Origin: a virus
Length of the DNA: 64,000 nucleotides
Reading direction: 5' to 3' (one strand)
IMG/VR virus record: IMGVR_UViG_3300005758_000132
Coordinates: 1-64,000 of that record
Shown one piece after another: positions 3,173 to 64,000 of the stretch (the first letter of the stretch is position 1; each line of letters begins with the position of its first letter). The notes under the pieces are model-generated. The model did not search any database, was not told where the DNA came from, and worked only from the letters and a program-made list of their open reading frames with translations. The position numbers and the translations under genes were made by a program.

Positions 3173-4090
3173 TCACCAGCTCGCAATGATGACCAGTCCA
3201 GGACCGCCATCGCCACCGCGCCCGCCTGTCAATCCGCCACCGCCACCGCCACCGCCTGCGCCCCATGCAACGCCATTACCGCCACGGCCACCAACGCCAA
3301 GATTGTTGCCGCCGCCGCCGCATCCGCCGTAATGAATGCCGGCATGAATGAACCCGGATGATGCGTCTTCGCCTGTTTCGGCCGTTCCCCCTGGTACCGC
3401 ATTGAGCAATGTAGCTCCGCCGGCAGAATATCCACCGCCTGCGCCTCCTGCGCCGGAAGTTTTTCCTCCTCCAGATGCTCCGCCCATTAAAATGTTATCG
3501 ATAAATTGTGATGACGCAGTACCTGTGCTTCCGTTAAATGATAAGGCAGCTCTATTGAGAAATCTTTGACTGACTGCCATCCTACCTAGAGGGGCTATGC
3601 TTCCATCCACTTGATTTCCGCCACCGCCAAAAACACTTCCGCCGAAAGATATAGTGCCTGCTCCACCGCCCGACCCGCCTGAATTAGTTCTTACTAACGC
3701 ATTGGCAGAGGTGGAGAAATCGTGGTATGGATGTACACATACAAAACTGTCTATTCCAGAAAAACCGGATACACCAGCGCCTCCTCCATTTCCTCCCTTC
3801 CCGGCAATAACATATAGCCTTTCAGGCAGTGTTATTGCCAAAAAAGTCATAGAGACAAGCTGCCCACAACTACCACCACCGCCGCCACCAGCAGTCGCGT
3901 TGATTGAATTTGACGCTCCTCCGCCCCCTCCTCCTCCACCACTAATTACTATTATCGACACCATGGAAATGCCCCTTGGCTTGTTCCATATTGACCAAAA
4001 GCTAGACCCTGGAGCAGAGCTATTGCTCTGATGGGCCGGAAACCAGACCGTGCGCTCATCAGGCTCGGGCAGGTGCAGGAGGTCAATCAT
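3173..4090 (-). CDS. Glycine-rich tail-fibre-associated protein (paralog 3 of 3)
   Basis: MIDLLHLPE...WNKPRG...GGDGGPGLVIIASW. Confidence 0.75.
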   Translation of the reverse strand: MIDLLHLPEPDERTVWFPAHQSNSSAPGSSFWSIWNKPRGISMVSIIVISGGGGGGGGASNSINATAGGGGGGSCGQLVSMTFLAITLPERLYVIAGKGGNGGGAGVSGFSGIDSFVCVHPYHDFSTSANALVRTNSGGSGGGAGTISFGGSVFGGGGNQVDGSIAPLGRMAVSQRFLNRAALSFNGSTGTASSQFIDNILMGGASGGGKTSGAGGAGGGYSAGGATLLNAVPGGTAETGEDASSGFIHAGIHYGGCGGGGNNLGVGGRGGNGVAWGAGGGGGGGGLTGGRGGDGGPGLVIIASW

Positions 4091-4530
4091 CAGTACTTTC
4101 CGCCGAAGATGGTGCAGGTGAACTCACCTGAGCCGCCAGGCGCTGTGCCGATGGTCACATAAATCTTGTAGCCTGGCGGGAGTGCCATATTCAGGGCGTA
4201 GTCGAAATCGGCTTGCGGAGCGGATGCCGATGCCGTCGTCGACGGCAAACCGAGCTCGCCAATAAGCGCAGAGTTGGCGGCCGTGCCAGTAGTCGAGCCA
4301 TTGTTCAACCAGAAACGAACGACCGTTGCGTTCGTGTTGTTCGCTGGGTTGGCTTTGACGCGCGCATTGCGGACAAAGCCGCCATTGGTCGCATCAGCGA
4401 CGAAGACCTCGTAAGACGTGCTGCCGACCGTCGTCAGGTCCTGATTGTTGTTTAGGGTGTTGATTTCGACTTCCCACTGTATATCGCCTTGCCTACTGAA
4501 CACCGGTTCAGAGTTTGGTCCTGGCATCAC
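4090..4530 (-). CDS. Small beta-rich virion protein, fibre module
   Basis: Coupled to both neighbours, strong GGAGGTGA RBS, composition typical of structural proteins. Confidence 0.6.
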   Translation of the reverse strand: MMPGPNSEPVFSRQGDIQWEVEINTLNNNQDLTTVGSTSYEVFVADATNGGFVRNARVKANPANNTNATVVRFWLNNGSTTGTAANSALIGELGLPSTTASASAPQADFDYALNMALPPGYKIYVTIGTAPGGSGEFTCTIFGGKY

Positions 4531-4827: not shown

Positions 4828-5199
4828 TCAGGGTAGGAAGTTACGCTGACCTAGCAGAATGGCCCGGCCAACTTCGGTGAAGCGTTTGGCGTATGTGCCG
4901 AGTAGCGGGGCGAAGACTTTCTTGCTGCCCGCGCTGAACGTGACGACGTTATTGGAGTTGGAGGACTGCACGATGGTCTCGCGGACCAACGTGGTCGAAG
5001 CGGAGAGGTAGCCGATGCCCGTCTCCCACTCGGACTCGTCGTCCATCTGGATCGTGTAGGTGAAGCGCTTGCCGGTGTCCCCGTTGCCGAAGGCATCGTT
5101 GAACGAAACTCGGCCCGTGGGCGCGGTACCCGACAGCGTGAAGTCAGAAGCGCCCGTAGAGGTCGATGTGTCCTCCACCCTGTCGTAGTACGCAACCAT
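4828..5199 (-). CDS. Tail-fibre N-terminal-like structural protein
   Basis: DRVEDTSTSTGASDFTLSG matches the common DRVxETxTxTGT fibre-anchor N-terminus. Confidence 0.65.
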   Translation of the reverse strand: MVAYYDRVEDTSTSTGASDFTLSGTAPTGRVSFNDAFGNGDTGKRFTYTIQMDDESEWETGIGYLSASTTLVRETIVQSSNSNNVVTFSAGSKKVFAPLLGTYAKRFTEVGRAILLGQRNFLP

Positions 5200-5423
5200 T
5201 ACCCGCCTCCGATTTCTCTCTGCGCCTCGTCGATGTAGCCTTGAAGGTCATCGATCGTGCTCTGCATCGAAACACGAACGTCGTCCTGCGACGACGAGAG
5301 GCGGCCGATGCGCACGTAGAGCGCGTCGTTCTTGGTGGGGTAGATGCCCGGCCCTTCGTTCTCGGGGACTTCCTCGGGAACGTCGAACCGGACATCGCCA
5401 GTGGTTTTAAGCCGCCAGCCCAT
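5199..5423 (-). CDS. Hypothetical protein
   Basis: GAGGGGG RBS, TAATG coupling. Confidence 0.55.
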   Translation of the reverse strand: MGWRLKTTGDVRFDVPEEVPENEGPGIYPTKNDALYVRIGRLSSSQDDVRVSMQSTIDDLQGYIDEAQREIGGG

Positions 5424-5437
5424 ATTACCCCCTCAGA

Positions 5438-6079
5438 TTACATGCGGAAGGTCATGCTCGCAACCGACACCTGAACGCCTGCGGCGATCGAGGCGTCAGA
5501 AGAGGCGAGCGCGCACTCGGTCAGCGACGACTTCACGCGGAAGTAGTTGGTGCCCGCGTCGGTGTAGTTGATGCTCGTGCCACCAGCCGAGGTGGCGAGC
5601 TCGAAGGTCGTCGAGGAGCTGTTGCGCACGTAGTAGGTCGTGTTCTCGACGATGCCGGTCGGGAGCACGCCGCCGGCCTCGATGAACATGTGGATCGTCG
5701 CGTCGTTGGAGAAGCCGTGCGCGACCGTCGTGGTGAAGGTCAGCTTGCCGCTGACGTTCGAGGTCGAGGTGCGCAGCGAGCCACCGGCCACGAGGTCGAT
5801 GACGCCCGTGCCCGCCGACTTGGTGAGGCGAGCGTAGCCGGCCGTACCAGACGCAGGCGCCGCGTCTTCCGACGTCACCGAGTTGGCCGTCGCGACGCCG
5901 CCAGAGGCAGCCGCGAAGGCGGGGTTGGAAAGGGTAAGCTCGGCGAGCAGGGTGCCGGTTGCCGAGTCGGTCGGCAGCGAGGGCGCCGAGCCGGTGTAGA
6001 TGCGGAGCAGGCCGCCGTCGACGTTTGCAAGCAGCGCGTCCAGCGCCTCATTACGTCCTTCAACAGAGATAGTAGCCAT
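5438..6079 (-). CDS. Virion structural protein
   Basis: RNEALDA...LRIYTGSAP...GTLLAELTL...GTAGYARL is a widespread phage virion-protein pattern; strong RBS and strongly biased codons. Confidence 0.7.
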   Translation of the reverse strand: MATISVEGRNEALDALLANVDGGLLRIYTGSAPSLPTDSATGTLLAELTLSNPAFAAASGGVATANSVTSEDAAPASGTAGYARLTKSAGTGVIDLVAGGSLRTSTSNVSGKLTFTTTVAHGFSNDATIHMFIEAGGVLPTGIVENTTYYVRNSSSTTFELATSAGGTSINYTDAGTNYFRVKSSLTECALASSDASIAAGVQVSVASMTFRM

Positions 6080-6094
6080 GATGATCCTCCTCAG

Positions 6095-6913
6095 TTACCA
6101 GATATCGCCATCGATGCTGATACTAGCTGACACGCCGGCAGCTAGTAAGTCCTCTAAAATCGGTGTCAGCTGACGCAAGCGCTTTCCATTATCGAGGTAA
6201 AGCGGATGACCTGCGCCAAGTGCATCAGCTGATTTTGTAGCGTCTAAAAATAGGTGCCCACCAAACGGGTCAGAAGTTCTCGCGACGGGGCTGACCCTAA
6301 CATAGGTTCTGGGCGGTGGTGAAAAATCACGGTGATCTAGCTTGACTTCATACACCATGCCAGAACCAGCGTATCGACCGGCTTGCACTTCCCAGTCGCT
6401 AGGCTGCGTGCCTGTAAAGTTCAAGCGCGGCCCTCCGGTAGCTTCCCTGACACGAAACGGAAGGAAGCGCGCCGTCAGGCCGGTCGCAGTCGTGAAGTTG
6501 GCTAGCTCGAAGTCGCTTGAACGATAGCTCGTTAGACCTAGCCAAGCGCCTGAGGGACCTAGCACTTCCGTTGACCTGTATAGCACACCACGCACGCGCA
6601 CCAGCCGGTCTACGTGGTCACTAGTAAACGGTCCGCCAGTGCCCTCTAACAGCCTTGTAGGGGTAGACGCGTCAGTGTCCACGAGACGGCTCTCAGCGTA
6701 GTCATGCAGCGCCATCTCGATGAATCGAAACACTGCCTTAGGGTGCGTTCGCGCGCCGATAGCGACCGCGTGAATCGCGTTAACCCACACCGCTTCTGAG
6801 AAGTCTCGCGGACGCGGTACGCCATAGAGAGCAGCGATGGCATCGTGCCAGCGTCCTTCCGCCTTGTGCACGAGCATCGCGCGAAACGCGGCTTCTATCT
6901 GCGACGTAATCAT
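6095..6913 (-). CDS. Putative baseplate wedge protein
   Basis: Position in the module; C-terminal LEDLLAAGVS resembles wedge-protein ends. Confidence 0.45.
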   Translation of the reverse strand: MITSQIEAAFRAMLVHKAEGRWHDAIAALYGVPRPRDFSEAVWVNAIHAVAIGARTHPKAVFRFIEMALHDYAESRLVDTDASTPTRLLEGTGGPFTSDHVDRLVRVRGVLYRSTEVLGPSGAWLGLTSYRSSDFELANFTTATGLTARFLPFRVREATGGPRLNFTGTQPSDWEVQAGRYAGSGMVYEVKLDHRDFSPPPRTYVRVSPVARTSDPFGGHLFLDATKSADALGAGHPLYLDNGKRLRQLTPILEDLLAAGVSASISIDGDIW

Positions 6914-7959
6914 ACAGCGCCTCCAGTTCGACGCGGGATAAGTCTATCAGGCGGCACGTCAGGCTCTACAAAAAGTGCAGGATGACCGTAATTGAAGTCC
7001 ATCACAACAGGCGTGTTCTCGTCAGCGAAACTGCCGTCAGGCATGTAGTTGGTCTCAATAGTCATGCGACGATTAGTCACGTCAGTTGAATTTACAGACA
7101 CGCGCAATAAATACCCGTCTACCCAGATGTAGTTTTCACCAAAAAACCCAAGTGTGGTCTCGACAAGCGCATACACATCGCCTGGCTCTAGCTTGCTTCG
7201 AAGGCGCGTGCATGGCGCGCCTCCAAACCTGTGCATGGTTCTACCAAGGGCGGACAGCAGCGCGTCCAGCGGTCTGTACGGAGGCAAGTTATCGTCAGTA
7301 GCTTGCGCGTCGAAACGGATATCGCGTGCCCCTGATTTCCACGCCTCCGGCATAGACGCTGCCAGCTCGTATTTAGCAGGCCATGGTCTATCTCGTCTCA
7401 GAATCGAGATGACACCTGCCTCTGATACTAGAGCAGACCCAGAGTAGACCTCGATGCTGTAAAAGCCTAGCGGCAATGGCGGAAGTGAAAAATAAAGCCG
7501 CTCGCCGTCTCTTGACGGCGCGATAACGTCAGACATTCCCGCGACGCAACTGAAACACCCGTACCCGTTTTGAGGCCAAATAGCGTTGCTAACGTCTCTG
7601 AGAAAAACTTTATACGTAGACGTCACTGACCAAGTTCCGACAAGGAGAACAACGTCACCACCTTCATCACTGTACGTTGTGCCGTATGGGAACATGACGT
7701 GTAAACTGTACGGAAAACCATAGCCGGGTTCGCCATCGCCAAAGATAGAGCCCCAGACGCCATACCCGTCACCATATGGCGCTCCCCAACCATCAAGCTG
7801 AGGCAGAGATACGATAGCTGAAGCAACTGCGACAAAGGGTGAGCCCCTCCAGTCGTAGGAGAGGTTGGTCGTATCGATGCCGTTGCTGCCAGGCACCCTG
7901 ACAAAGGGCGAGCCTTTGTAGTTGTAGTTGAGGGCGACGCTGTTGCTCGAAATGGTCAC
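6910..7959 (-). CDS. Putative baseplate/tail protein
   Basis: 349-aa ORF coupled to neighbours; duplicated YxxxGSPFV at the N-terminus. Confidence 0.55.
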   Translation of the reverse strand: MTISSNSVALNYNYKGSPFVRVPGSNGIDTTNLSYDWRGSPFVAVASAIVSLPQLDGWGAPYGDGYGVWGSIFGDGEPGYGFPYSLHVMFPYGTTYSDEGGDVVLLVGTWSVTSTYKVFLRDVSNAIWPQNGYGCFSCVAGMSDVIAPSRDGERLYFSLPPLPLGFYSIEVYSGSALVSEAGVISILRRDRPWPAKYELAASMPEAWKSGARDIRFDAQATDDNLPPYRPLDALLSALGRTMHRFGGAPCTRLRSKLEPGDVYALVETTLGFFGENYIWVDGYLLRVSVNSTDVTNRRMTIETNYMPDGSFADENTPVVMDFNYGHPALFVEPDVPPDRLIPRRTGGAV

Positions 7960-7960
7960 G

Positions 7961-10900
7961 TCACACCGCCTGGCTGATGGTGATGTCGTCGATGTACACG
8001 GTCTCCGGCGTGCTGGTCACGAACCAGACCTTGGCGCCGAGCTCAACGACACCGCGCTCAGTGGGTGTGAACGTGATGGTGACGTTCTGCCACGCGGTGT
8101 CGGACGCCTTCACCGTCTCCACGTCGGTCGTCACGCCAGCGATCTGCCCACCCTTGCAGATGAAGCTCGCCGCGATGTCCGTCGAGTCGGTCTTCTTCAT
8201 CCACAGGGAGGCGGTCACGAGGTAGTTGGCCTCGACCGGCACCTGAGCGATGGGCATGTAAAAAGGCCAGCCCTCGTCACGATAGGGACCAAGGGGATTT
8301 GTCAGTGTGATGCCCCACATCAAGCCGGCACCGCCGCTTCGAGTGGTGGGAGCGCTGACCACCTCGACACCTACATCGAACAGGTAGTTCTGACCGGTGC
8401 TATTGTGATTCTTGGAGTCAAATCGACGCGATCTTGCTGCAGGATAGGCATAAACATTTTCAGCGCACGAAGAAAACGTGAGATCTCGACCGTAGTTCTG
8501 ACCTCCTGATGTCTCAACACCTCTATCACAATTCGTAAACGAGCCAGAATTAAGCTCGTTACCGTTAGTTGTAGGGTAGAAAACCGCACCGCTACTACAG
8601 TAGCTCGCCGTTATTGCCTGAATTGTGTTATTCAAACACGATAAAAACTCTACACCCGCATAACAGTTAGTTGCTATTATACTGGTAATAGTATTATTCG
8701 AACATGAAGAAAAATGCGCGCCGGTACTGCAGTAGTTAACTCTAGTTGAAGTTACAGTATTGTTGTTACCCTCAGACAAAAATACACCGTACTGATTACA
8801 GTGAGTTGCTGTAATATCCGTAACAGTGTTTCGGAACGAGCCTGCGTCTTCAAAGTGAAACCCGTACATGTATCGCGTCACATGAAAACGGGTAAACGTA
8901 TTGTATGAGAGAGAGCAGTAGATGCCGGAGCCGTATCCAGTCTGACCGTCGTATATCGTGACACCATTCTGCGTATTGCTTACGGTGTCCCAGCCGCCAG
9001 AGTAGTTTATTGTGCCCCCATACTGACCGTCATCGCGAGCTGTATTTGCAGAGCTTGAAACTACAGATAGAGCGATAGGCTTTCGAAGATAAGTTGTGAC
9101 GTTTTCAGTTGTTCCGAGGTATCCGCGTTTTGCAGTAGAGCCTGAAGGTGTAAACTGAGGACTACCCGCACGTTCCGCGAGCATGACCACACGCCCACTA
9201 ATCGACTCAATCGCAAAGGTAAATTCGGTGCCGCCAAAGGCCTGAGTATTCTTTGTGATGAGTGTGTGAAGATTCAGACCAGCCGCATCGCAGGCGCTGA
9301 TGTTGTCAACTGACAAATATGCACCTGCCTGTGTGGCAGTGTCTGAGTAGAGCGCGATCGACTGAATTGCCGCACCGAGGGCGCCACCGCCGGACTTCTG
9401 TATGACAAGAGGGTACCACCTACTTTGCGCGGGAAGGGCGGGTACGAGGAATGTGTCTACCACCGTCTGACCATTCGTGTCTGAGCAAAGGCAAATGCGA
9501 TACTCATCGGTGGCTAGTGGGTTCGTACCGTTTGATTTAGCCCAAAGGGTAATCGAGTCGTGGCTGCTGAAGTCCGTAGACGTAATTGTCTTGTAGGCCA
9601 ATCGAGCAGCCGCAGCGCCCGCAACAATGATATTTCCGACAATGTGCGTGACGTGCGCTGCGCTCTGTGGTGACTGACCGCTCGGAGTGTCGAGCGTCAG
9701 GGCGCCGGAGTCGTCCACCGTGATGGTGAGCGTGCAGCCTGATCCAGATCCACCAGAGGTCAATTTCCCTGATCCAGCCGTGTAGCCGCCAAGCACTGAC
9801 TGTGTATCAAGCTGCACGGTGAGGACACCACCGTCGTCGACGGTGAGGATGTCGAGTTGGCAACCGCCGCCGCTACCTCCTGACGTGTTCACGGAGGTGC
9901 CGGTCGAATATCCCGTACCGCCCGTTGTGACCGATACAGTGAGAACTGGGTAAGGAACAGCGCCTACCGTCAACACTGTAACGGTCGCGTCGTTTCCACC
10001 CCCTGTGATCGTCAGAACGTCGCCCGGTGTGTACCCGGTACCGCCGAACGGGACGGCAACCGTCAGCACAGGGCCGGTGGTGTCGACAGTCAGGACCTCC
10101 ACGGTGGCGTCGGTAGGCCCGGAGTCGATCGTGAGAATGTCACCGATCGTGTAGCCGCTACCACCAGCCGTCACGGTGATAGCGTCATTTACGTACCCCC
10201 CAACCACGGTCCAAGCGGACTCGCAGTTGTCGATCGTCTTGGTCTGCGCGGTATCGAGATAGACTACCTGCGCATTGATCTGTCTGACCTTACCACCAGA
10301 TCCAGCGCCTCCGCCTGCGCCTACGCTATTGGCTCCAGTTTCAGCATCGATCAATTGGAAGGTGTTGAGCGTTTTGTTGGCAACCTTCCAGGTACCGTTC
10401 GCCGTGGTGTTGGTCGAGTGGTCATAAACACGGACGTAGTCGCCGTTGTTCAACCCGTGATTGGTGGACGTGGTGACGACAATCGGGGTGGCGTCGGTGC
10501 TCGACGAGATGGTGACCTCAGCGCCGATAGGACCGCCTGTCCAGGTGGCACCACCGACGCTAACAGGGTCACCGCTCTTGGCGACGCGGATCGTGTCGCC
10601 CGGCTGAATGCGCGCTGCGAGGGGGCCATCAGAGATGGTCTCCCACGCATCCGCCCAAGAGCTTCCGCCCCTGGGAGTGACGGTACCCGAGGCGTCCACC
10701 GTAGCCTGCCACGTCGCGCCGTCGAGGTCAAAGTTGTCCGCGTTGAAGACAGTGATTTTCCACGCGCCGTTGAGCCAAGCGTCAAAATCGGTGAGGTCGA
10801 CGACGGCTCCGGTGGTCAGGCCGTGGCCCGTCTTGTTGATGCGCGTGATGGTGCCGGACGGATTCGAAGCCGTGCAGCTTGCGAGCGCTGCACGAGCTGA

Positions 10901-25852: not shown

Positions 25853-26350
25853 ATGGCGCCAGTTCTTTCTTTTCACGTGCAGGTCAGCACCATCGTAGGC
25901 GCGCTCAGTCCTGCTGACGCTGCTAACACCTTCAAGGAATGGGTCAGCGACCTCAAGGCGTGGCCCATCGAAGTCGAGGCAAGCAACGGCGACCGCTGGG
26001 ACGTCGACTCGACGACCGGCGAAGTCGCGCCGCGCACTGGCCTGAGAAAGGCCGTCATTGAGGCTTGGGACTGGGACGAGATGCTCAGAACTTCGTTTCC
26101 GGGGTGGTTCCACGAGTTTGCTGACGAGGCGCTGCAAAACTCAGATGTCAGCTACGGCGATAACTCGGCCACGATTTTCTCAGGTCCAGTCGCTGTTACC
26201 GTCCTCGACTCAGCGTACTACAGCCTCATGCTAGCTAGCGTTCCTGGTATTGGTAGCGAGCAATACGCAGAGGCCAAGAAGGGTATCGAGCTGGCCGTCG
26301 CGGCCTATGATCTAAACAACCGCAGCACCCGTGTAGTGGTGTGGTCTTGA
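25853..26350 (+). CDS. Hypothetical protein (start uncertain)
   Basis: Open frame from 25676; ATG at 25853 preferred because it avoids the overlap and follows AAGGG. Confidence 0.55.
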   Translation: MAPVLSFHVQVSTIVGALSPADAANTFKEWVSDLKAWPIEVEASNGDRWDVDSTTGEVAPRTGLRKAVIEAWDWDEMLRTSFPGWFHEFADEALQNSDVSYGDNSATIFSGPVAVTVLDSAYYSLMLASVPGIGSEQYAEAKKGIELAVAAYDLNNRSTRVVVWS

Positions 26351-26400
26351 CGCGCTTGGTAGACGCCGTGACCGCGCGTAGCAGTACTTGGGGAGGGTAT

Positions 26401-27489
26401 ATGACGAGACTAGTAAACTACGCAGGCCATCTTGAGTATGTTTACGCGTACGACGACGAAGGTGCGCGTGCTGCCTATGAAAAACAGGCTATGCGCGAAG
26501 CCGCCAGACGGGATAACGACATCGCGGCGGCCTCGATTCTTGGGCACACTGAGCTTGGAAAAGCACTTCCTGTTGATACAGAGATTCCTACCCCTACAGG
26601 TTGGAAGCTACTAAAGGACCTTCATCCAGGTGACTTTGTCTTCGCTATGGATGGTAGCCCTACCAGGATTATATCTGAAACGCCTATAACTAAGCAGAAA
26701 GTATACAGGATCTTGTTTTCTGACTTCACTTATCAGGTAGCCAGCGGTGACCATCAGTGGCTAGTCTCGACCGGCGATAGAAGTCTTCATACGCTAACAA
26801 CAGTTCAGATACTTGAGTCAGGTCTTACTTGCAGAGTCCCTTTGTGTAAGCCTATCGCGCATAGCCTGAAAGATAACGTTAGGTGGCCTAATCTTTTAGA
26901 GCTGAAAAGGTTTAACTTTTACTCACGCATGTTTTCTTTTTGCTCTTCGAGAGACACTGAAGATGCTGCGGAGCTGGCTAGGTCTCAAGGTTACTTTGTA
27001 CTGGTCAGCGGTAATTGTTTGGAAGTAAGAAACGACTTGTTTAAGACGATTATGGCAATAGTTCCAGAGTCTCACGCAGTCGACATGAAGTGCATCGGCG
27101 TGGAGCACGAGACGCACACATACATTGCAGGTAGGTCTTACACAGTAACGCATAACTGTGTAACATCACAGACGATTTTCATTCTACGTGACGGTAGTCT
27201 GGTAAACACCATCGGCCACACCCCGACGGTTCGGATGCTTTTCAGCCACGAAGGAAAGACCGTCACCGTGACGAGCGCGCGCAAGCGTCCGGGCGGTGAC
27301 CCCAACTTCAAGGTGCTCGACGACCTCGGTAAGGTGCCGCGTCCTTTCCAGCGCGCCGCCATCGAGAAAGTCATGACGAGGTCGTTTGGAATCGTCAAGG
27401 CGCCGCTTGGTTCCGGCAAGACACTCTGCGCTGTGGGCTGCATGGCCTCACAGCCGGTTATCGATATGGACACGGGTGAGGAAGAATAA
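26401..27489 (+). CDS. Chimeric intein-containing ORF ending in a truncated SF2 helicase N-terminus (possible pseudogene)
   Basis: GGGAGGG RBS; intein; then PRPFQ (Q motif) and APLGSGKT (Walker A) followed closely by a stop. Confidence 0.6.
   Translation: MTRLVNYAGHLEYVYAYDDEGARAAYEKQAMREAARRDNDIAAASILGHTELGKALPVDTEIPTPTGWKLLKDLHPGDFVFAMDGSPTRIISETPITKQKVYRILFSDFTYQVASGDHQWLVSTGDRSLHTLTTVQILESGLTCRVPLCKPIAHSLKDNVRWPNLLELKRFNFYSRMFSFCSSRDTEDAAELARSQGYFVLVSGNCLEVRNDLFKTIMAIVPESHAVDMKCIGVEHETHTYIAGRSYTVTHNCVTSQTIFILRDGSLVNTIGHTPTVRMLFSHEGKTVTVTSARKRPGGDPNFKVLDDLGKVPRPFQRAAIEKVMTRSFGIVKAPLGSGKTLCAVGCMASQPVIDMDTGEEE
26563..27156 (+). mobile_element. Ala1 (class 3-type) mini-intein, 198 aa
   Basis: GK|ALPVDTEIPTPTGW...DHQW...MKCIGV...YTVTHN|C; W-C-T triplet present; AT-richer codons than flanks. 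Confidence 0.85.
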
Positions 27490-28197: not shown

Positions 28198-28281
28198 GCC
28201 GGGATGGCGGAACAGGTAGACGCAGTGGACTTAAAATCCACCATCCAATGGGATATGCGGGTTCAAGTCCCGCTCCCGGCA
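28198..28281 (+). tRNA. tRNA-Leu(UAA), no encoded CCA
   Basis: GCCGGGA/TCCCGGC acceptor stem, GTGGA-CTTAAAA-TCCAC anticodon arm, long variable arm, GGTTCAAGTCC T arm, discriminator A. Confidence 0.95.
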
Positions 28282-28352: not shown

Positions 28353-29069
28353 ATGGCAAAGAACAAGCAGCTTAGTGTCTCTTCTAACGTGCTCAAGCAA
28401 TGGCCGACGGAGCTAATGGATATAACTAGCTTGCTACCGGCAGGTTATAATCCACGTCGTATAACGCAACACGCGCTAGTCGGCCTTCAAAACTCGCTTT
28501 CTCAGTTTGGGCTTGTTCAGCCTATCGTATGGAACCGTAACACCGGCAACGTAGTGGGCGGGCATCAGCGTCTAGAAGCTATGAAAGCCCTAGGCGAGAC
28601 AAAAGCGCAGGTCATCGTAGTCGAGCTTAGCGATACGCAAGAGCGTGCGTTAAATCTAACGCTCAACAATCCAGCTATTCAAGGGAGTTGGAACGACGAG
28701 AAGCTTGAAGAGTTGATAGCGTCTCTCCAAGCCGCCGACGACTTCGATGTAGAGTCTGCGCAAGACACGCGTCTCGACGAGCTGATCGCACAGTTCTCAA
28801 CGTCAGATATTTTACTTCAGCTTCCGGATAGCGACAGCGGAAGCGGTCTTGAACCGGACGAGGCTTCCTACGCGGCAGTTGTAACTGACGCGAAAAAACC
28901 TTCTTACGCGCGTATGGTATCGGTGTTCATGACTGATGTCGAAGAAGGCGTCTTCTACGAGAGAGTAAACCAACTCAAGGCAAGTTGGGGTTTCGACACT
29001 TTGTCCGAAGTCGTAGTCGAGGCTGTAAAACAATGCTCGTCAAGGACAAAAGAAGATGAAAATCTATGA
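28353..29069 (+). CDS. ParB/Srx-like N-terminal domain protein (modification-cluster associated)
   Basis: YNPR...FGLVQPIVWN...VVGGHQRL...LNN. Confidence 0.9.
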   Translation: MAKNKQLSVSSNVLKQWPTELMDITSLLPAGYNPRRITQHALVGLQNSLSQFGLVQPIVWNRNTGNVVGGHQRLEAMKALGETKAQVIVVELSDTQERALNLTLNNPAIQGSWNDEKLEELIASLQAADDFDVESAQDTRLDELIAQFSTSDILLQLPDSDSGSGLEPDEASYAAVVTDAKKPSYARMVSVFMTDVEEGVFYERVNQLKASWGFDTLSEVVVEAVKQCSSRTKEDENL

Positions 29070-29985
29070 GATAAAAAAGTCGCCAGCCGAAGACTCGATA
29101 GCTGGCTCGTGGATACAGGAGTCTGATTACGACGTCCTAGTGGACGAGGACGCTGAAATACGCGACGCAGATACTGGCGCAGTAGTCGCGCGACTTCGCA
29201 AAGCAGCCCTACCCGCGGAGCTATGCAAAACGGTTTGGCGTGATTTGAGAGAAAAACTAACTACTGATCCAGGTAATCGACTAACGGCAGTAGGCAATAC
29301 GACGTATTTAGCAAATAGCACTAACAAGCGCGCGCTACCGGGAGCGTCTACACCGAGCGGTCGAGTAGGAGACGCTAAAGGGCAGACACTGGGTTACATG
29401 GATCGATCGGTTCGACAACCGTTTTGTCGTCAGACAGCTTGGACGGCCGAAGAAGTAGAAGCTTGGGAAAGATTCGTGCCGTTCGCGCAAGCTGTAGATC
29501 GCGTTTACGCTAATACTATGCCCGAGCACTACGCCTTCCAGCGCGGAGTCGCGGATAAGTCGTCACAAGATTTTGTAATTAGCGACACCGCTTTCACAAC
29601 CGTCACAGCCAATAAAAACTTTCAGTGCGCAGTTCATAAAGACGCAGGAGATTTGCCCGGCGGCTTTGGCGTGATGACGCAATGGCGAGCCGGCGATTTT
29701 AAGGGAGGCGACATCGTGTTCCCAGAATACCGCGCCGCGATACGCTACGGCGCGACAGATGTTTTATTCGCCAACGTGCATCTATGGCACGGCGTATCCA
29801 AAATGATAGGTATAAAGAAAAAGTGGGAAAGGCTCGTCTGTGTTTTTTATTACAGAGACGGTATACAATTCTGCGGTACGGCAGCGGAAGAGCTTAAACG
29901 CGCTGCGCAGCGTAAAACAGGCGACCCGCTAAAGCGTGTACACATCGATCGCAATGATCCCCACGCGTCGGAGACGAAACTTTGA
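29056..29985 (+). CDS. TET/JBP-family Fe(II)/2-oxoglutarate dioxygenase
   Basis: GYMDR..PFCRQTAW, FTTVTANKNF..AVHKDAGD (HxD), WHG, RLVCVFYYR. Confidence 0.9.
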   Translation: MKIYEIKKSPAEDSIAGSWIQESDYDVLVDEDAEIRDADTGAVVARLRKAALPAELCKTVWRDLREKLTTDPGNRLTAVGNTTYLANSTNKRALPGASTPSGRVGDAKGQTLGYMDRSVRQPFCRQTAWTAEEVEAWERFVPFAQAVDRVYANTMPEHYAFQRGVADKSSQDFVISDTAFTTVTANKNFQCAVHKDAGDLPGGFGVMTQWRAGDFKGGDIVFPEYRAAIRYGATDVLFANVHLWHGVSKMIGIKKKWERLVCVFYYRDGIQFCGTAAEELKRAAQRKTGDPLKRVHIDRNDPHASETKL

Positions 29986-30638
29986 TAGGTCAAAGTGTTT
30001 TAGTTTTAGCCCCGCACGCGGACGACGAGGTTCTTGGCGCGGGCGGGTTATTAGCCCAATCGACAAGGAAAGGCGCTAAAGCTTTCGTCTGGGTAGCGTC
30101 AAGCTCTAATTACACCCGCGCAGACGGTAAAGAAGTTAGACGCGCCGACCGATTAGAAGAAGCAGAAAAAGCGGCACGCGTTCTAGGAGCTATACTGATC
30201 GGAGAAACCAAAGACGCAGAAGGTAATCTAGACGAGAAGGTTGGGCACCGCGCCTTAGTAAAAGTAATCGAAGATGTTATTCGAGCCGCTCAACCTCAGG
30301 TCGTAGTTATACCAGGCCCGAGCCACCATCAAGACCATCAGGCAGTACGGAAGGCGGCGCTGTCCGCTATGAGAGGCGGACAGCGAGGGCCGTCAGTCAT
30401 ACTGTCTTTCGAGTATCCGCCGAGCCCTTTCGTAGACCTGCCAGCCGGTAGGGTATTTGTAGAGCTAGAGCAGCTAGATATGAACGCCAAACTCGCTGCA
30501 TGGAGCTGTTATAAGAGCCAGCTCGGCTCGCACATGACAAGTCTTCAGATAGAGAACATGGCGCGAATGCGCGGATTAGAGGCTAAAGGCGACGGAATCG
30601 CGGAGCTATTCGCGCTAGAAAGGATGGTGCTTAAATGA
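29982..30638 (+). CDS. PIG-L/LmbE-family N-deacetylase
   Basis: APHADDEVLGAGG, RLEE, HQDH, KLAAWSCYKSQ. Confidence 0.9.
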   Translation: MIGQSVLVLAPHADDEVLGAGGLLAQSTRKGAKAFVWVASSSNYTRADGKEVRRADRLEEAEKAARVLGAILIGETKDAEGNLDEKVGHRALVKVIEDVIRAAQPQVVVIPGPSHHQDHQAVRKAALSAMRGGQRGPSVILSFEYPPSPFVDLPAGRVFVELEQLDMNAKLAAWSCYKSQLGSHMTSLQIENMARMRGLEAKGDGIAELFALERMVLK

Positions 30639-31399
30639 AGTGGCCGCATATCGCTATACCGTCATACAAGAGAAGTAGTACGCTTCTCAAAAAAACTCTT
30701 TTACTGCTTTCTCAAAATCGTGTTCCTCAAGAAATTGTGACTGTGTTTGTCGCGAACGAGCATGAGAAAAGCGCGTACGAAGAAGCGCTCGCCAGCGGTG
30801 GTTGGGGCAACGCGAAGATCGCTATAGGGGAGGTAGGAATGGGCGCCATTCGCCGCTTCATTGCTCGTTACTACCCAGAGGGTGATCATGTTCTGAATAT
30901 AGACGATGACGTGACTAGACTATTGGTTCGCGTCGACGATAAAAAAGTCTCTGACACGCCTCTGTCGGACGTTGTTTCGAGCGGATTTAGACTTCTCGCC
31001 AAGAGCGGACTTCGTTTATGGGGCGTCTACCCGAACAAGAATCCGTATTTCATGAAGCCTACAGTGTCAACGGATCTTAAATATATAAACGGAACATTGT
31101 GGGGAAATATCTCGAACCGCGACGATCGGCTGTTGGTGACGCTCGACGACAAGGAAGACTTCGAACGGTCTATACGATACTACGCGATCGACGGCGGAGT
31201 TGTTAGGCTAAACTACATTGCTACAGAGACCAAGTACTATACTGAACCTGGCGGTATGCAAGAGAGCCGAACCGAGCGAGGAATCACAGAGTCTGCGCAT
31301 AAACTTGTACGAATGTTCCCGCAGTTTTGCTCTATAAATAACGCGCGTAAAGGTCACACAGAGGTAAAGCTAGCAGACCGACGAGGCGCGAGAGTATGA
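30635..31399 (+). CDS. TET-associated GT-A fold glycosyltransferase
   Basis: IAIPSYKR, IDDD, KEDFERSI, GGVVRLN, PGGMQ. Confidence 0.88.
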   Translation: MKWPHIAIPSYKRSSTLLKKTLLLLSQNRVPQEIVTVFVANEHEKSAYEEALASGGWGNAKIAIGEVGMGAIRRFIARYYPEGDHVLNIDDDVTRLLVRVDDKKVSDTPLSDVVSSGFRLLAKSGLRLWGVYPNKNPYFMKPTVSTDLKYINGTLWGNISNRDDRLLVTLDDKEDFERSIRYYAIDGGVVRLNYIATETKYYTEPGGMQESRTERGITESAHKLVRMFPQFCSINNARKGHTEVKLADRRGARV

Positions 31400-31404
31400 G
31401 TACA

Positions 31405-31867
31405 AAACAGAAAAGCCCGAGTCACCGTGGGGTTGGCGATTCGGGCTTTTCTGTTAGCTCAAGGAGTCGCGGAGCGCTCGACCTGCGTACAAATCCGTGG
31501 GACCGGATCGGCGATCGAGCCAGGAGGGGTGAAGCAGGGTGGTGCTTCGTGATCCCTCCGGCGCGGCTAACCCTTCATTCGAAGAAGCTACCTAACAAAA
31601 GCTGTGCAACGCGGGAAGCAATGCAAGGTTGAGGAAAAGCGAACTGAGAGACATTCCCAAGTCAAAAGTCCTCAACGGTCAGCTATTCACAAGCTGGAAC
31701 AAACGTAAACCTCAAGCACCCAGTAGCGTAAGCCAAGAGTGGAGCAGCGTACGAAAGCGACAACGTGTGAAGTTATTAGAGAGCAAAAACAAATGACGCC
31801 TGCACAGATTTCGCCGTGCAAGGGGCTAGGACCTTCAGAGCGACACCGAAGCGCCGTCCCGAAGGTG
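31405..31867 (-). ncRNA. Candidate structured non-coding RNA (~460 nt), family unknown
   Basis: Consecutive hairpins whose imperfect pairs are G-U on the minus strand; C-UUCG-G tetraloop; bounded by a promoter and a terminator. Confidence 0.6.
31410..31451. terminator. Bidirectional intrinsic terminator
   Basis: GAAAAGCCCGA...TCGGGCTTTTC inverted repeat with T tracts on both strands at the convergence point. Confidence 0.8.
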
Positions 31868-62332: not shown

Positions 62333-63034
62333 TCAAATACCCAGCTCATCAACGAACAGCGAGAAACGCTCTCCGATAGTGATAGCCGCCGGGTACTTTG
62401 ACTTGAGATGCTTCACGAGCCGATGGAACTTTTCCTGCTGCGTCTCAGTGTCGAAAACAACGTTGTACTGAATGACTGGCGGCGGAGTGTCCAAGCTAGC
62501 GCTGAGCTCGTCTTTTCCGGCGTCCTCTGGCTTTAGCTTTTCCTTGGACGGCTTGATATCCTCCGCGAGGACGTCAGCTGTCGAAAACGCGGCGATCAGC
62601 TCGTCAAGCCTCACGTCGACTAAAACGTCTGTGTCAAAGGTTGACGATCCTTGAAGCTCGCCTAGAAGCTCCTCTAGCTTGCTATCATCCCAGGTTCCCT
62701 GGATAGCAGGATTGTTGAGCGTTAGATTAGCGGCTCGCTCCTGCTCCTCGTCGAAGTCAACCACCTTGACCTCGACCTCTTTCTCCCCGAGCGCTTTGAG
62801 CGCTTCGAGCCGCTGGTGGCCGCCGACCACTCTGCCCGTTCGGATATTCCATACGATGGGCTGCATCTCTCCAAACACAGCCAATGAATTCTGGAGACCC
62901 TCTAGCGCGTGCTTAGTGATCTTTCGCGGGTTGTAGTCCGCTGGGATGAGATCGTCGATATCGATGACCCTAGAAGGCCAGCGCTTTACGAGGTTTGAAA
63001 TAGGTTGTTGCGGCTGCTTTTTACCCTTAGGCAT
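62333..63034 (-). CDS. ParB/Srx-like N-terminal domain protein (paralog of 28353..29069)
   Basis: YNPR..QPIVWN..VVGGHQRL; AGGAG RBS before ATG 63034. Confidence 0.88.
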   Translation of the reverse strand: MPKGKKQPQQPISNLVKRWPSRVIDIDDLIPADYNPRKITKHALEGLQNSLAVFGEMQPIVWNIRTGRVVGGHQRLEALKALGEKEVEVKVVDFDEEQERAANLTLNNPAIQGTWDDSKLEELLGELQGSSTFDTDVLVDVRLDELIAAFSTADVLAEDIKPSKEKLKPEDAGKDELSASLDTPPPVIQYNVVFDTETQQEKFHRLVKHLKSKYPAAITIGERFSLFVDELGI

Positions 63035-63051
63035 ACTAATTCTCCTGATAA

Positions 63052-64000
63052 TTACTGAGCGAGCCAATCGTTCAGCTCGTCCCACACCTGAACCTCGCGC
63101 ACCTGCTCACGCTCTACCGCACGCTGCGCGATTCCGTCGTTGCGTACCTTAGCCGCGCGCTGCTCGTATTGCTCCGCGTCTTCATCGACTTTTCGCACGG
63201 GCTTCTGATCTATCGTCTCCGTAATCAGCGCGGTCATAGCGGTATTCATCGGCACGATATCTGCGAGACCGAAATGACGCTCGCCTAGTCGACGTCTACA
63301 ACCGTCCCACGCCATGTAGACGCTCATTGCTCGGTCGCCAGTGTGTACGCTTGGATCAGGCGAGTAATGCAGCAGGTCCTGAATCCAGGCCTCTACCTCG
63401 TGGTGCACCTCGCGATAGTCGCCGCAAGGTATCGACCAGAGCTTAGCCTTCATCTCTACGCCGATGCCCTCAATACCCCACTTCGGGTTGTGCTTGTCGC
63501 CCGTAGTCGTGAACGGAACAACCTTACGCCGCAGGTCTGGCGGGAAGGTCAGACCAAAGCCGGAGAGATCGCCCTTTAGCGCGCGCGAAATAACTACCTG
63601 CGCGCCGTTGCTCTCGACGAAAATAAATCGCGGATTCCACTGCTCGTTCGCTAGCACGATATTGCTGAGCAAATCGTCGAGCATCCAGCGCCCCGACTTT
63701 ATCTGTATCAGCTCTACCCTACCGACACTGTCCACCGCGATCACGCTGATAGCAGAGCGGTCACCACGCTTCTCGATATCTGCGAACGCCAAGTCTACCC
63801 CCACGTAGAACGCGCGCTCGTCGTTTTCTAGGCGCTCTGAACGCATCAGGGCTACCCGGTGCTCATCCACCATGCCAGCGAGCCTGGGGACCTTACAGCC
63901 ATCAAACCACTCGCGCTTGAAGCGCGATGTAGCGTCAGACGTGGTGAGGCACTCGAACGCGCGCGCAGCTTCCGCGGGTGGAAGACTTGCGTAAGCCCTA
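63052..64000 (-). CDS. terL: Terminase large subunit, C-terminal nuclease part (5'-truncated)
   Basis: Frame open to the window end; AFEC..FKREW, VGVDLA, FVESNGAQ, GDRAMS. Confidence 0.9.
   Translation of the reverse strand, partial: RAYASLPPAEAARAFECLTTSDATSRFKREWFDGCKVPRLAGMVDEHRVALMRSERLENDERAFYVGVDLAFADIEKRGDRSAISVIAVDSVGRVELIQIKSGRWMLDDLLSNIVLANEQWNPRFIFVESNGAQVVISRALKGDLSGFGLTFPPDLRRKVVPFTTTGDKHNPKWGIEGIGVEMKAKLWSIPCGDYREVHHEVEAWIQDLLHYSPDPSVHTGDRAMSVYMAWDGCRRRLGERHFGLADIVPMNTAMTALITETIDQKPVRKVDEDAEQYEQRAAKVRNDGIAQRAVEREQVREVQVWDELNDWLAQ

Follow-up and report, generated by a model that had tools for sequence, protein, structure and literature searches.

An uncultured 109-kb tailed phage carries four tightly packed genes that most likely oxidise thymine in its finished DNA, attach an N-acetyl sugar and then remove the acetyl group, which would leave a free amino sugar on the base. 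The whole of this chemistry is inferred from sequence, predicted structure and published work on related enzymes. No such DNA base, and no link between a deacetylase and DNA hypermodification, was found in the papers that could be searched, which did not include the study that reportedly defined the TAGT family (Iyer et al., 2013, NAR 41:7635).

The four genes and their predicted functions

The cassette lies in the window, i.e. the 64,000-nucleotide stretch that was analysed (positions 1 to 64,000 of the 109,013-bp record IMGVR_UViG_3300005758_000132). An earlier note had described four overlapping genes with intact catalytic motifs at 28353-31399 and no C5 methyltransferase in the window, and this observation was confirmed. 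The open reading frames are at 28353-29069 (238 aa), 29056-29985 (309 aa), 29982-30638 (218 aa, TTG start) and 30635-31399 (254 aa), are all on the + strand and overlap by 14, 4 and 4 nt. In Pfam searches all four products scored above the cut-offs: ParB_N 33.8 bits (cut-off 26.3), Tet_JBP 82.1 (34.9), PIG-L 70.0 (28.2) and TAGT 37.2 (27.5).

In the first protein (28353-29069) only the N-terminal CTPase-type ParB domain was detected at residues 22-102, and phmmer matches to Spo0J, ParB and Noc in the PDB covered residues 20-104 only. No HTH domain was detected. By analogy with the genetic dependence published for other phages (PMC13229309), it is the probable activator of the adjacent dioxygenase, in whose reading frame its gene ends 14 nt after the start. 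The second protein (29056-29985) is a TET/JBP-family Fe(II)/2OG dioxygenase (5mYOX) with the domain at residues 120-267, predicted to convert T to 5hmU. The H194-x-D196, H245, R259 and R267 motif residues, which include the HxD...H iron ligands and the 2OG-binding Arg, are invariant in 25 relatives, as is C273. A conserved C-terminal extension of 42 residues follows R267, with a C273/E279 block, as judged from these relatives and without alignment to the characterised enzymes.

The third protein (29982-30638) is a PIG-L/LmbE-family (PF02585) zinc de-N-acetylase, predicted to convert DNA-linked HexNAc to HexN. Its motifs for the zinc site and the general base, P11-H12-x-D14-D15 and H116-x-D118-H119, align with those of TT1542 and Dac. 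H12, D14, D15, D118 and H119 are invariant in 40 sequences, and H116 in the 7 closest. An AF2 model had a pLDDT of 90.5, and the top Foldseek hits were diacetylchitobiose deacetylase (Dac), TT1542, Dbv21/Orf2*, BshB and MshB (E 4e-12 to 4e-8, TM 0.57-0.77), in agreement with the LmbE Rossmann-like fold. The fourth protein (30635-31399) is a TET-associated glycosyltransferase (TAGT, PF20691), predicted to transfer HexNAc onto 5hmU in DNA. Its AF2 model (pLDDT 93.0) has a predicted GT-A fold, with AvpGT, TarS with UDP-GlcNAc, GnT-I and TarP among the Foldseek hits. The D90-D91-D92 motif and R13 are intact and D90-D92 is invariant across relatives. In the TAGT tree it falls in a starred clade of 7 rows with the TAGTs of the other three PIG-L+TET cassettes in that tree.

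Distribution of the cassette and its parts

To examine how common the parts are, the surroundings of relatives of each enzyme were inspected. Of the 80 nearest TET relatives 61 have a ParB directly upstream, and a ParB is directly beside the dioxygenase in 80 of 120 in the wider set. In a neighbourhood-labelled tree of these 120 relatives the nearest rows of the TET are all ParB-adjacent. Of 79 loci holding the nearest TAGT relatives (36-50% identical), 48 hold a TET within 6 kb, 23 keep the contiguous ParB-TET-TAGT order and 78 lack PIG-L. This shows that the gene set is common without PIG-L, whereas the PIG-L form is rare. It was found in two other uncultured phages (loci L004 and L044), in subcluster B5 mycobacteriophages such as PRodriguez, and in Arthrobacter phage Lilmac1015, so that PIG-L sits inside the cassette in five separate groups of phages. 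L004 has only the four gene types, whereas L044 has a radical SAM/SPASM gene inside the cassette.

Of 57 phage loci with PIG-L relatives, 32 hold ParB and TAGT within 6 kb. PIG-L sits with ParB-TAGT pairs that lack TET in 28 further viral loci. In the three such loci whose neighbouring genes were scanned, two have amide-forming enzymes that use amines beside them, namely a WbqC-like protein in L014 and an ATP-grasp ligase in L009; L029 carries a PLP decarboxylase. This fits a role of PIG-L in exposing a sugar amine. A metagenome scan with a PIG-L alignment gave 80 loci, of which four held both ParB and TAGT, one more held TAGT alone and none had a TET; the tblastn hits L143 and L144 passed none of the local profile searches, that for PIG-L included. 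The scan thus added no instance of the full cassette. A blastn search of the operon against phages gave no match, and a search for related loci with the TET protein alone found nothing.

Inferred pathway and its relation to known systems

The earlier note proposed that the oxidised base receives a HexNAc that is deacetylated to a cationic hexosamine, and this interpretation is supported, as every element of it that sequence can test held up: the cassette is a real, co-transcribed one with intact enzymes, and PIG-L sits inside a gene set that is common without it. The note's further claims, that the modification blocks nucleases and partly neutralises packaged DNA, remain speculation. Two points can be sharpened. 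First, the note left open whether the substrate is thymine or 5mC made elsewhere, and had suggested a search for a methyltransferase in the rest of the genome. In that search PF00145, PF00303, PF01555 and PF02086 were all absent from the 109-kb record, which therefore lacks C5, N6/N4 and Dam methyltransferases and ThyA-like enzymes. PF00145 was also absent from the four other cassette-bearing genomes, and a crude motif test found no C5-MTase-like ORF in the loci of the 120 TET relatives. Together with the ParB adjacency this favours thymine. Second, ParB is not a bystander but the probable activator of the dioxygenase. A ParB next to a phage 5mYOX is now the published mark of ParB-activated thymine dioxygenases (O'Toole et al., PNAS 2026, PMC13229309). 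In that study ParB-adjacent phage 5mYOXs were shown experimentally to be ParB-activated T-dioxygenases, and only 6% of 5mYOX pathways carry a C5-MT.

The most likely pathway, which is considered more probable than not, is a post-replicative hypermodification of thymidine. In this view the ParB-like protein activates the dioxygenase on double-stranded phage DNA, and the dioxygenase hydroxylates the C5-methyl of thymine to give 5-hydroxymethyluracil. TAGT would then transfer an N-acetylhexosamine to the new hydroxyl, most simply GlcNAc from the abundant UDP-GlcNAc of the host, and PIG-L would remove the N-acetyl group. The product would be 5-(hexosaminyl-oxymethyl)uracil, a base-J-like nucleotide with a free, partly protonated amine, and the bulky sugar in the major groove would hinder restriction and other nucleases. 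What the analysis establishes is the presence of the genes, their motifs and predicted folds, their conserved linkage and the lack of any methyltransferase or ThyA-like route in the genome. The substrate, the donor sugar, the order of the steps, the product, the biological role, the stimulation by ParB and the deacetylation itself are only inferred. The nearest TAGT relatives work without PIG-L in all but one of their loci, so HexNAc use cannot be shown to be a family trait; for this TAGT it is only suggested by the PIG-L partner and by GlcNAc use in other phage TET-associated glycosyltransferases. PIG-L proteins in ParB/TAGT cassettes are not more basic than others (median pI 5.9 against 6.0), so there is no electrostatic sign of DNA binding, although this comparison is uninformative.

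Among the closest known systems are the ParB-dependent phage thymine dioxygenases (clade C1 5mYOX, e.g. 5mYOX176/ParB176; PMC13229309). There too a ParB gene abuts a roughly 300-aa Tet_JBP enzyme, no C5-MTase is present, and the ParB has the N-terminal NTPase-type domain without a detectable HTH; those enzymes also have a C-terminal extension, to which the one seen here may correspond. Here the tailoring genes are a TAGT glycosyltransferase and a PIG-L deacetylase, and no deacetylase is mentioned in that paper. The phage C5-MT/TET/GT clusters (contigs 14 and 43; Burke et al., PNAS 2021, PMC8256090) and those of a survey of glycosyltransferases (bioRxiv 2023.12.21.572611) also combine post-replicative oxidation with glycosylation. 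TET-associated glycosyltransferases of phages transfer GlcNAc to 5hmC in vitro and in vivo (PMC8256090), and HexNAc-modified bases were reconstituted (bioRxiv 2023.12.21.572611). However, those clusters start from 5mC made by a cluster-encoded methyltransferase and stop at acetylated sugars; no deacetylase occurs in the text of either paper or in the one supplement of the preprint that was searched. In base J of kinetoplastids (JBP1/2 plus JGT), thymine in DNA is hydroxylated by a TET/JBP enzyme and the 5hmU is O-glycosylated. Base J carries glucose, involves no amino sugar, deacetylase or ParB partner, and has a eukaryotic regulatory role. In every PIG-L pathway characterised so far (MshA/MshB, BshA/BshB, PIG-A/PIG-L and teicoplanin GtfA/Orf2*) the deacetylase acts directly after a GlcNAc transferase, with the same deacetylase fold and zinc motif. 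The acceptors in these pathways are inositol, malate, phosphatidylinositol or a glycopeptide and not DNA, and the partner glycosyltransferases are GT-B, whereas TAGT is GT-A.

Among cultured phages, Mycobacterium phage PRodriguez and the Acadian-like subcluster B5 (genes 1-5) and Arthrobacter phage Lilmac1015 (gp65-69) have ParB, TET, TAGT-family GT and PIG-L in one operon. Their order is ParB-TET-GT-PIG-L, against PIG-L before the glycosyltransferase here, the TET is annotated as 'DpdA-like TGT' or 'oxidoreductase', and the mycobacteriophages add a P-loop kinase. They are siphoviruses of high-GC hosts with only 31-37% identity to the PIG-L and TET of the window. It is about as likely as not that the virion DNA of this phage and of these cultured phages contains a free-amine 'amino base J', and that PIG-L is the general enzyme by which phages expose a sugar amine on DNA, either as the end product, as here, or as a handle for aminoacylation in the TET-less ParB-TAGT-PIG-L-WbqC/ATP-grasp cassettes. 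Known thymidine hypermodifications carry amines through aminoethyl, putrescinyl or amino-acid groups, and known DNA glycosylations carry neutral sugars. An amino sugar would combine the two, add a new base to the list and extend the ParB-activated thymine dioxygenases to a glycosylation branch. It would also give a defined role to the 'glucosaminyl deacetylase' genes annotated without explanation in actinophage genomes, where the neighbouring TET is mislabelled as a tRNA-guanine transglycosylase. A free amine on DNA is also a convenient chemical handle for labelling, and the presence of the four genes in cultured M. smegmatis and Arthrobacter phages makes the question directly testable.

Alternative readings and minor observations

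The alternative that survives best, although unlikely, is that the cassette makes an ordinary hexosylated, base-J-like 5hmU and that PIG-L does something else, such as hydrolysis of another amide or ester, a hydratase-type reaction or a role in host metabolism. The scarcity of PIG-L beside the TAGT relatives agrees with this, the LmbE fold also includes a non-deacetylase, the GalB hydratase, and 20 of 52 phage PIG-L relatives lie outside ParB+TAGT contexts. Against it are the 4-nt overlaps of PIG-L with both neighbours, its place in the cassette in five groups of phages, the invariant deacetylase motifs and the linkage to ParB+TAGT in 32 of 57 loci. Nearly as well placed, but equally doubtful, is a different order of steps towards the same product, in which PIG-L de-N-acetylates a soluble precursor (free GlcNAc or the nucleotide sugar) and TAGT transfers the amino sugar directly. 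Gene order gives no constraint, as PIG-L precedes TAGT here and follows it in the actinophages; diacetylchitobiose deacetylases, the top fold hits, act on small soluble sugars, and PIG-L shows no basic, DNA-binding-like character. However, no PIG-L family member is known to act on a UDP-sugar, and the characterised pathways deacetylate the glycoside after transfer.

It is improbable that the substrate is 5-methylcytosine laid down by a host methyltransferase, giving a hexosaminyl-5hmC. The characterised ParB-dependent 5mYOXs can also oxidise 5mC (PMC13229309) and a host could methylate cytosines, but no C5-MTase was found in five of five cassette genomes or in the 120 TET loci, ParB-linked 5mYOXs made 5hmU in E. 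coli, and host methylation would modify only sparse sites. HexN-5hmdU and Glc-5hmdC are isomers and are not distinguished by MS1 alone. It is similarly improbable that the free amine is only an intermediate that an unrecognised enzyme acylates or aminoacylates. The WbqC, ATP-grasp and PLP decarboxylase genes of the TET-less cassettes, the radical SAM/SPASM gene of L044, the kinase of the mycobacteriophages and the unannotated ORFs that flank the operon could be taken in its favour. Yet no ligase, acyltransferase or kinase domain was found in the neighbours in the window, and L004 has only the four gene types. That the target is a virion protein or a host surface glycan, as for phage glycosyltransferases that act on capsids and O-antigens, is very unlikely, because the glycosyltransferase belongs to the TET-associated family, is translationally coupled to a DNA base dioxygenase and a ParB, and has relatives that keep the contiguous ParB-TET-TAGT order in 23 of 79 loci.

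Promoter, terminator and Rfam scans around the operon gave nothing decisive. A downstream ORF of 78 aa (31396-31632) has no homologue in any fetched locus and an odd composition, and is not counted as part of the operon. GC and GC3 of the four genes are uniform (0.49-0.53), giving no sign of a recent PIG-L insertion. A second ParB paralogue is encoded 31 kb away at 62333-63085 on the - strand (ParB_N 28.1 bits) and is 51% identical to the operon ParB over 203 aa. It is a possible second partner, although its membership in the system is uncertain; L004 carries two tandem ParBs in its cassette.

The cassette and its predicted enzymes

The 109,013-bp IMG/VR virus record to which these first 64 kb belong is rated complete by CheckV. 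The phage has a tail sheath and a replication module with PolA, RecA, DnaB and PrimPol, and the GC content is 55.7%. Its PolA is at most 28% identical to that of any cultured phage, so that this is an unstudied lineage. This family A DNA polymerase (genome positions 89986-92604, corresponding to 7186-9804 on the minus strand of the locus L002 of this genome) carries an N-terminal uracil-DNA-glycosylase-superfamily domain (Pfam UDG, residues 64-159).

At 28353-31399 four plus-strand ORFs were found that overlap by 14, 4 and 4 nt and that match ParB_N, Tet_JBP, PIG-L and TAGT, all above the curated cut-offs of Pfam. The four overlapping genes described in the earlier note are therefore real. The only tRNA in the window, a tRNA-Leu (anticodon TAA) at 28198-28281 (+), lies 72 nt upstream of the ParB start. 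A 78-aa ORF that overlaps the TAGT stop has no relatives and looks spurious. Further upstream, the 382-aa ORF at 26341-27489 (+) contains an intein: residues 73-149 match DnaB mini-inteins and the gp41-1 intein (E 2e-15), and a typical THN-C end follows, after which comes a DEAD-box-like Walker A segment. The PHROG 'terminase' hits of this ORF are probably intein hits. A second ParB_N protein, 51% identical to the ParB of the operon, is encoded 31 kb away at 62333-63085 (-) among head and cargo genes.

To examine whether the enzymes are intact, their motifs were compared with those of relatives and their structures were modelled. In the TET protein H194-x-D196, H245, R259 and R267 are invariant across 25 relatives. 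The P-H-x-D-D and H-x-D-H zinc and general-base motifs of PIG-L align to those of TT1542 and diacetylchitobiose deacetylase and are invariant in 40 sequences. The AlphaFold model of PIG-L (pLDDT 90.5) matches the solved LmbE-type GlcNAc-glycoside deacetylases Dac, TT1542, Dbv21/Orf2*, BshB and MshB. TAGT was modelled confidently (pLDDT 93) as a GT-A enzyme with an invariant DDD motif, and its nearest solved structures are AvpGT and the UDP-GlcNAc-using TarS, GnT-I and TarP.

The predicted substrate base

The earlier note left open whether the base that is modified would be 5mC or thymine. It was shown recently (O'Toole et al., PNAS 2026; PMC13229309) that phage 5mYOXs with an adjacent ParB are thymine dioxygenases, that these enzymes need that ParB to act on double-stranded DNA, and that only 6% of phage 5mYOX pathways carry a C5-MTase. 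To verify whether the window fits this description, the neighbourhood of the TET gene, its relatives and the complete genome were analysed, and agreement was found on every point that could be tested. ParB abuts the TET, and 61 of the 80 nearest TET relatives in IMG/VR have the same arrangement. In a tree of 120 relatives the nearest rows to the window are all ParB-adjacent, and none of the loci holds a C5-MTase-like ORF by a crude motif test. The whole genome lacks C5-MTase, ThyA-like, N6/N4 and Dam families, and the four other genomes with the full cassette also lack a C5-MTase. The ParB shows only the N-terminal CTPase-type domain and no HTH, as described for the 5mYOX-associated ParB. Membership of the same clade as the characterised enzymes is inferred from neighbourhood and architecture rather than from an alignment to these enzymes. 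Thymine, not 5mC, is therefore the likely substrate, and it is the base assumed in the pathway proposed below.

Linkage of PIG-L to ParB, TET and TAGT genes

To find out whether PIG-L is really part of the system, loci were sampled from three sides. Starting from the TET, none of the 80 nearest relatives has PIG-L, whereas 22 have a TAGT. Starting from the TAGT, 48 of the 79 loci with the nearest TAGT relatives have a TET and 23 keep the contiguous ParB-TET-TAGT order, but only one has PIG-L. ParB-TET-TAGT is thus a common three-gene unit, and the description of PIG-L in the earlier note as inserted is accurate. Starting from PIG-L, 39 of 57 phage loci with relatives of the window's PIG-L have a ParB, and 32 have both ParB and TAGT within 6 kb. 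Only four of these loci have a TET.

Including the window itself, the full four-gene set was found in five settings. In the uncultured phage locus L004 the order is ParB, ParB, TET, PIG-L, TAGT, as in the window. As this cassette has two tandem ParBs and the window a second ParB elsewhere, two ParBs per system may be a recurring feature. The uncultured phage locus L044 has the same order with a radical SAM/SPASM gene (5105-5986, +) between TET and PIG-L, which suggests further chemistry on the sugar or base in that lineage. The set is also present in subcluster B5 mycobacteriophages such as PRodriguez (genes 1-5), where the TET is annotated as a DpdA-like transglycosylase and a P-loop kinase follows, and in Arthrobacter phage Lilmac1015 (gp65-69). 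In public annotations the TET/JBP dioxygenases of PRodriguez (gene 2; 813-1691 of locus L058) and Lilmac1015 (gp67; 3320-4264 of locus L141) are called 'DpdA-like tRNA-guanine transglycosylase', 'queuine tRNA-ribosyltransferase' or 'oxidoreductase'. Both match the TET profile (E 1e-18 to 1e-20), so these names are misleading.

In a quick tree of the TAGTs, those of the four cassettes it included (window, L004, L044 and PRodriguez) fall in one well-supported 7-row clade. Most ParB/TAGT-linked PIG-Ls cluster together in a FastTree phylogeny, although the window's own branch is long and its position unsure. The closest relatives of the window's TAGT (43-50% identity; L225, L233, L235, L252, L253 and L263-L268) lie in low-GC contigs, several of which are labelled giant-virus MAGs (GVMAG). 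Across this high-identity group about half of the loci also hold an unusually long TET ORF (about 430-500 aa), and none has a ParB.

At least 28 viral contigs (among L005-L046) carry PIG-L, ParB and TAGT in one orientation without any TET. Of the four whose neighbouring genes were scanned, two carry amide-forming enzymes, namely a WbqC-like protein in L014 (cassette at 5953-8707) and an ATP-grasp ligase in L009 (6001-9863), three an MgsA_C-like protein and one a PLP decarboxylase. WbqC and ATP-grasp are both enzymes that act on amines, which is what one expects if the function of PIG-L is to unmask a sugar amine.

The inferred pathway and its precedents

The best-supported model is a chain of three reactions on replicated DNA. 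T would be oxidized to 5hmU by the ParB-activated TET, after which TAGT would transfer a HexNAc, and PIG-L would finally de-N-acetylate the product to a hexosaminyl-5hmU. UDP-GlcNAc is abundant in every bacterium and the genome encodes no sugar-nucleotide enzymes. For the first two steps experimental precedent exists in other phage clusters (PMC13229309; PMC8256090; bioRxiv 2023.12.21.572611). The third step relies on the linkage data and on the order of a glycosyltransferase followed by PIG-L that is universal to the mycothiol, bacillithiol, GPI and teicoplanin pathways. What the sequences establish is the gene set, its conserved motifs and its recurrent linkage, whereas the activities in this phage, the donor sugar and the product are inferred. 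Nearly all TAGT relatives work without PIG-L, and PIG-L shows no DNA-binding-like charge. Alternatively, PIG-L could act on a soluble precursor, which would give the same product. Taken together, the interpretation in the earlier note of an amino-sugar hypermodification is supported, and the full chain is considered more likely than not, though far from certain.

The cassette is a coherent but rare variant, in a new phage lineage, of a type of DNA-modification cluster that is already known, from which it differs by the presence of the deacetylase gene. None of the three key papers on phage 5mYOX/GT clusters mentions a deacetylase, full-text searches for the combination returned none, and the predicted amino-sugar thymidine is unreported in the papers that could be searched. 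HexN-5hmdU and glucosyl-5hmdC are isomers. Papers that list 'glucosaminyl deacetylase' or 'PIG-L' in phage genomes give no role for these genes. One of them, however, reports that the DNA of Stenotrophomonas phage DLP3, which has a PIG-L, GT-B and ParB cluster, resists all 15 restriction enzymes tried (PMC7326821), although this evidence is circumstantial only. Its relative, the cultured siphovirus Stenotrophomonas phage DLP5 (locus L140, 5992-12559), has a cluster of PIG-L, WcaG, WecE, a methyltransferase, a BshA-like GT-B and ParB, and the resistance of the DLP3 DNA makes it a candidate for a related amino-sugar modification.
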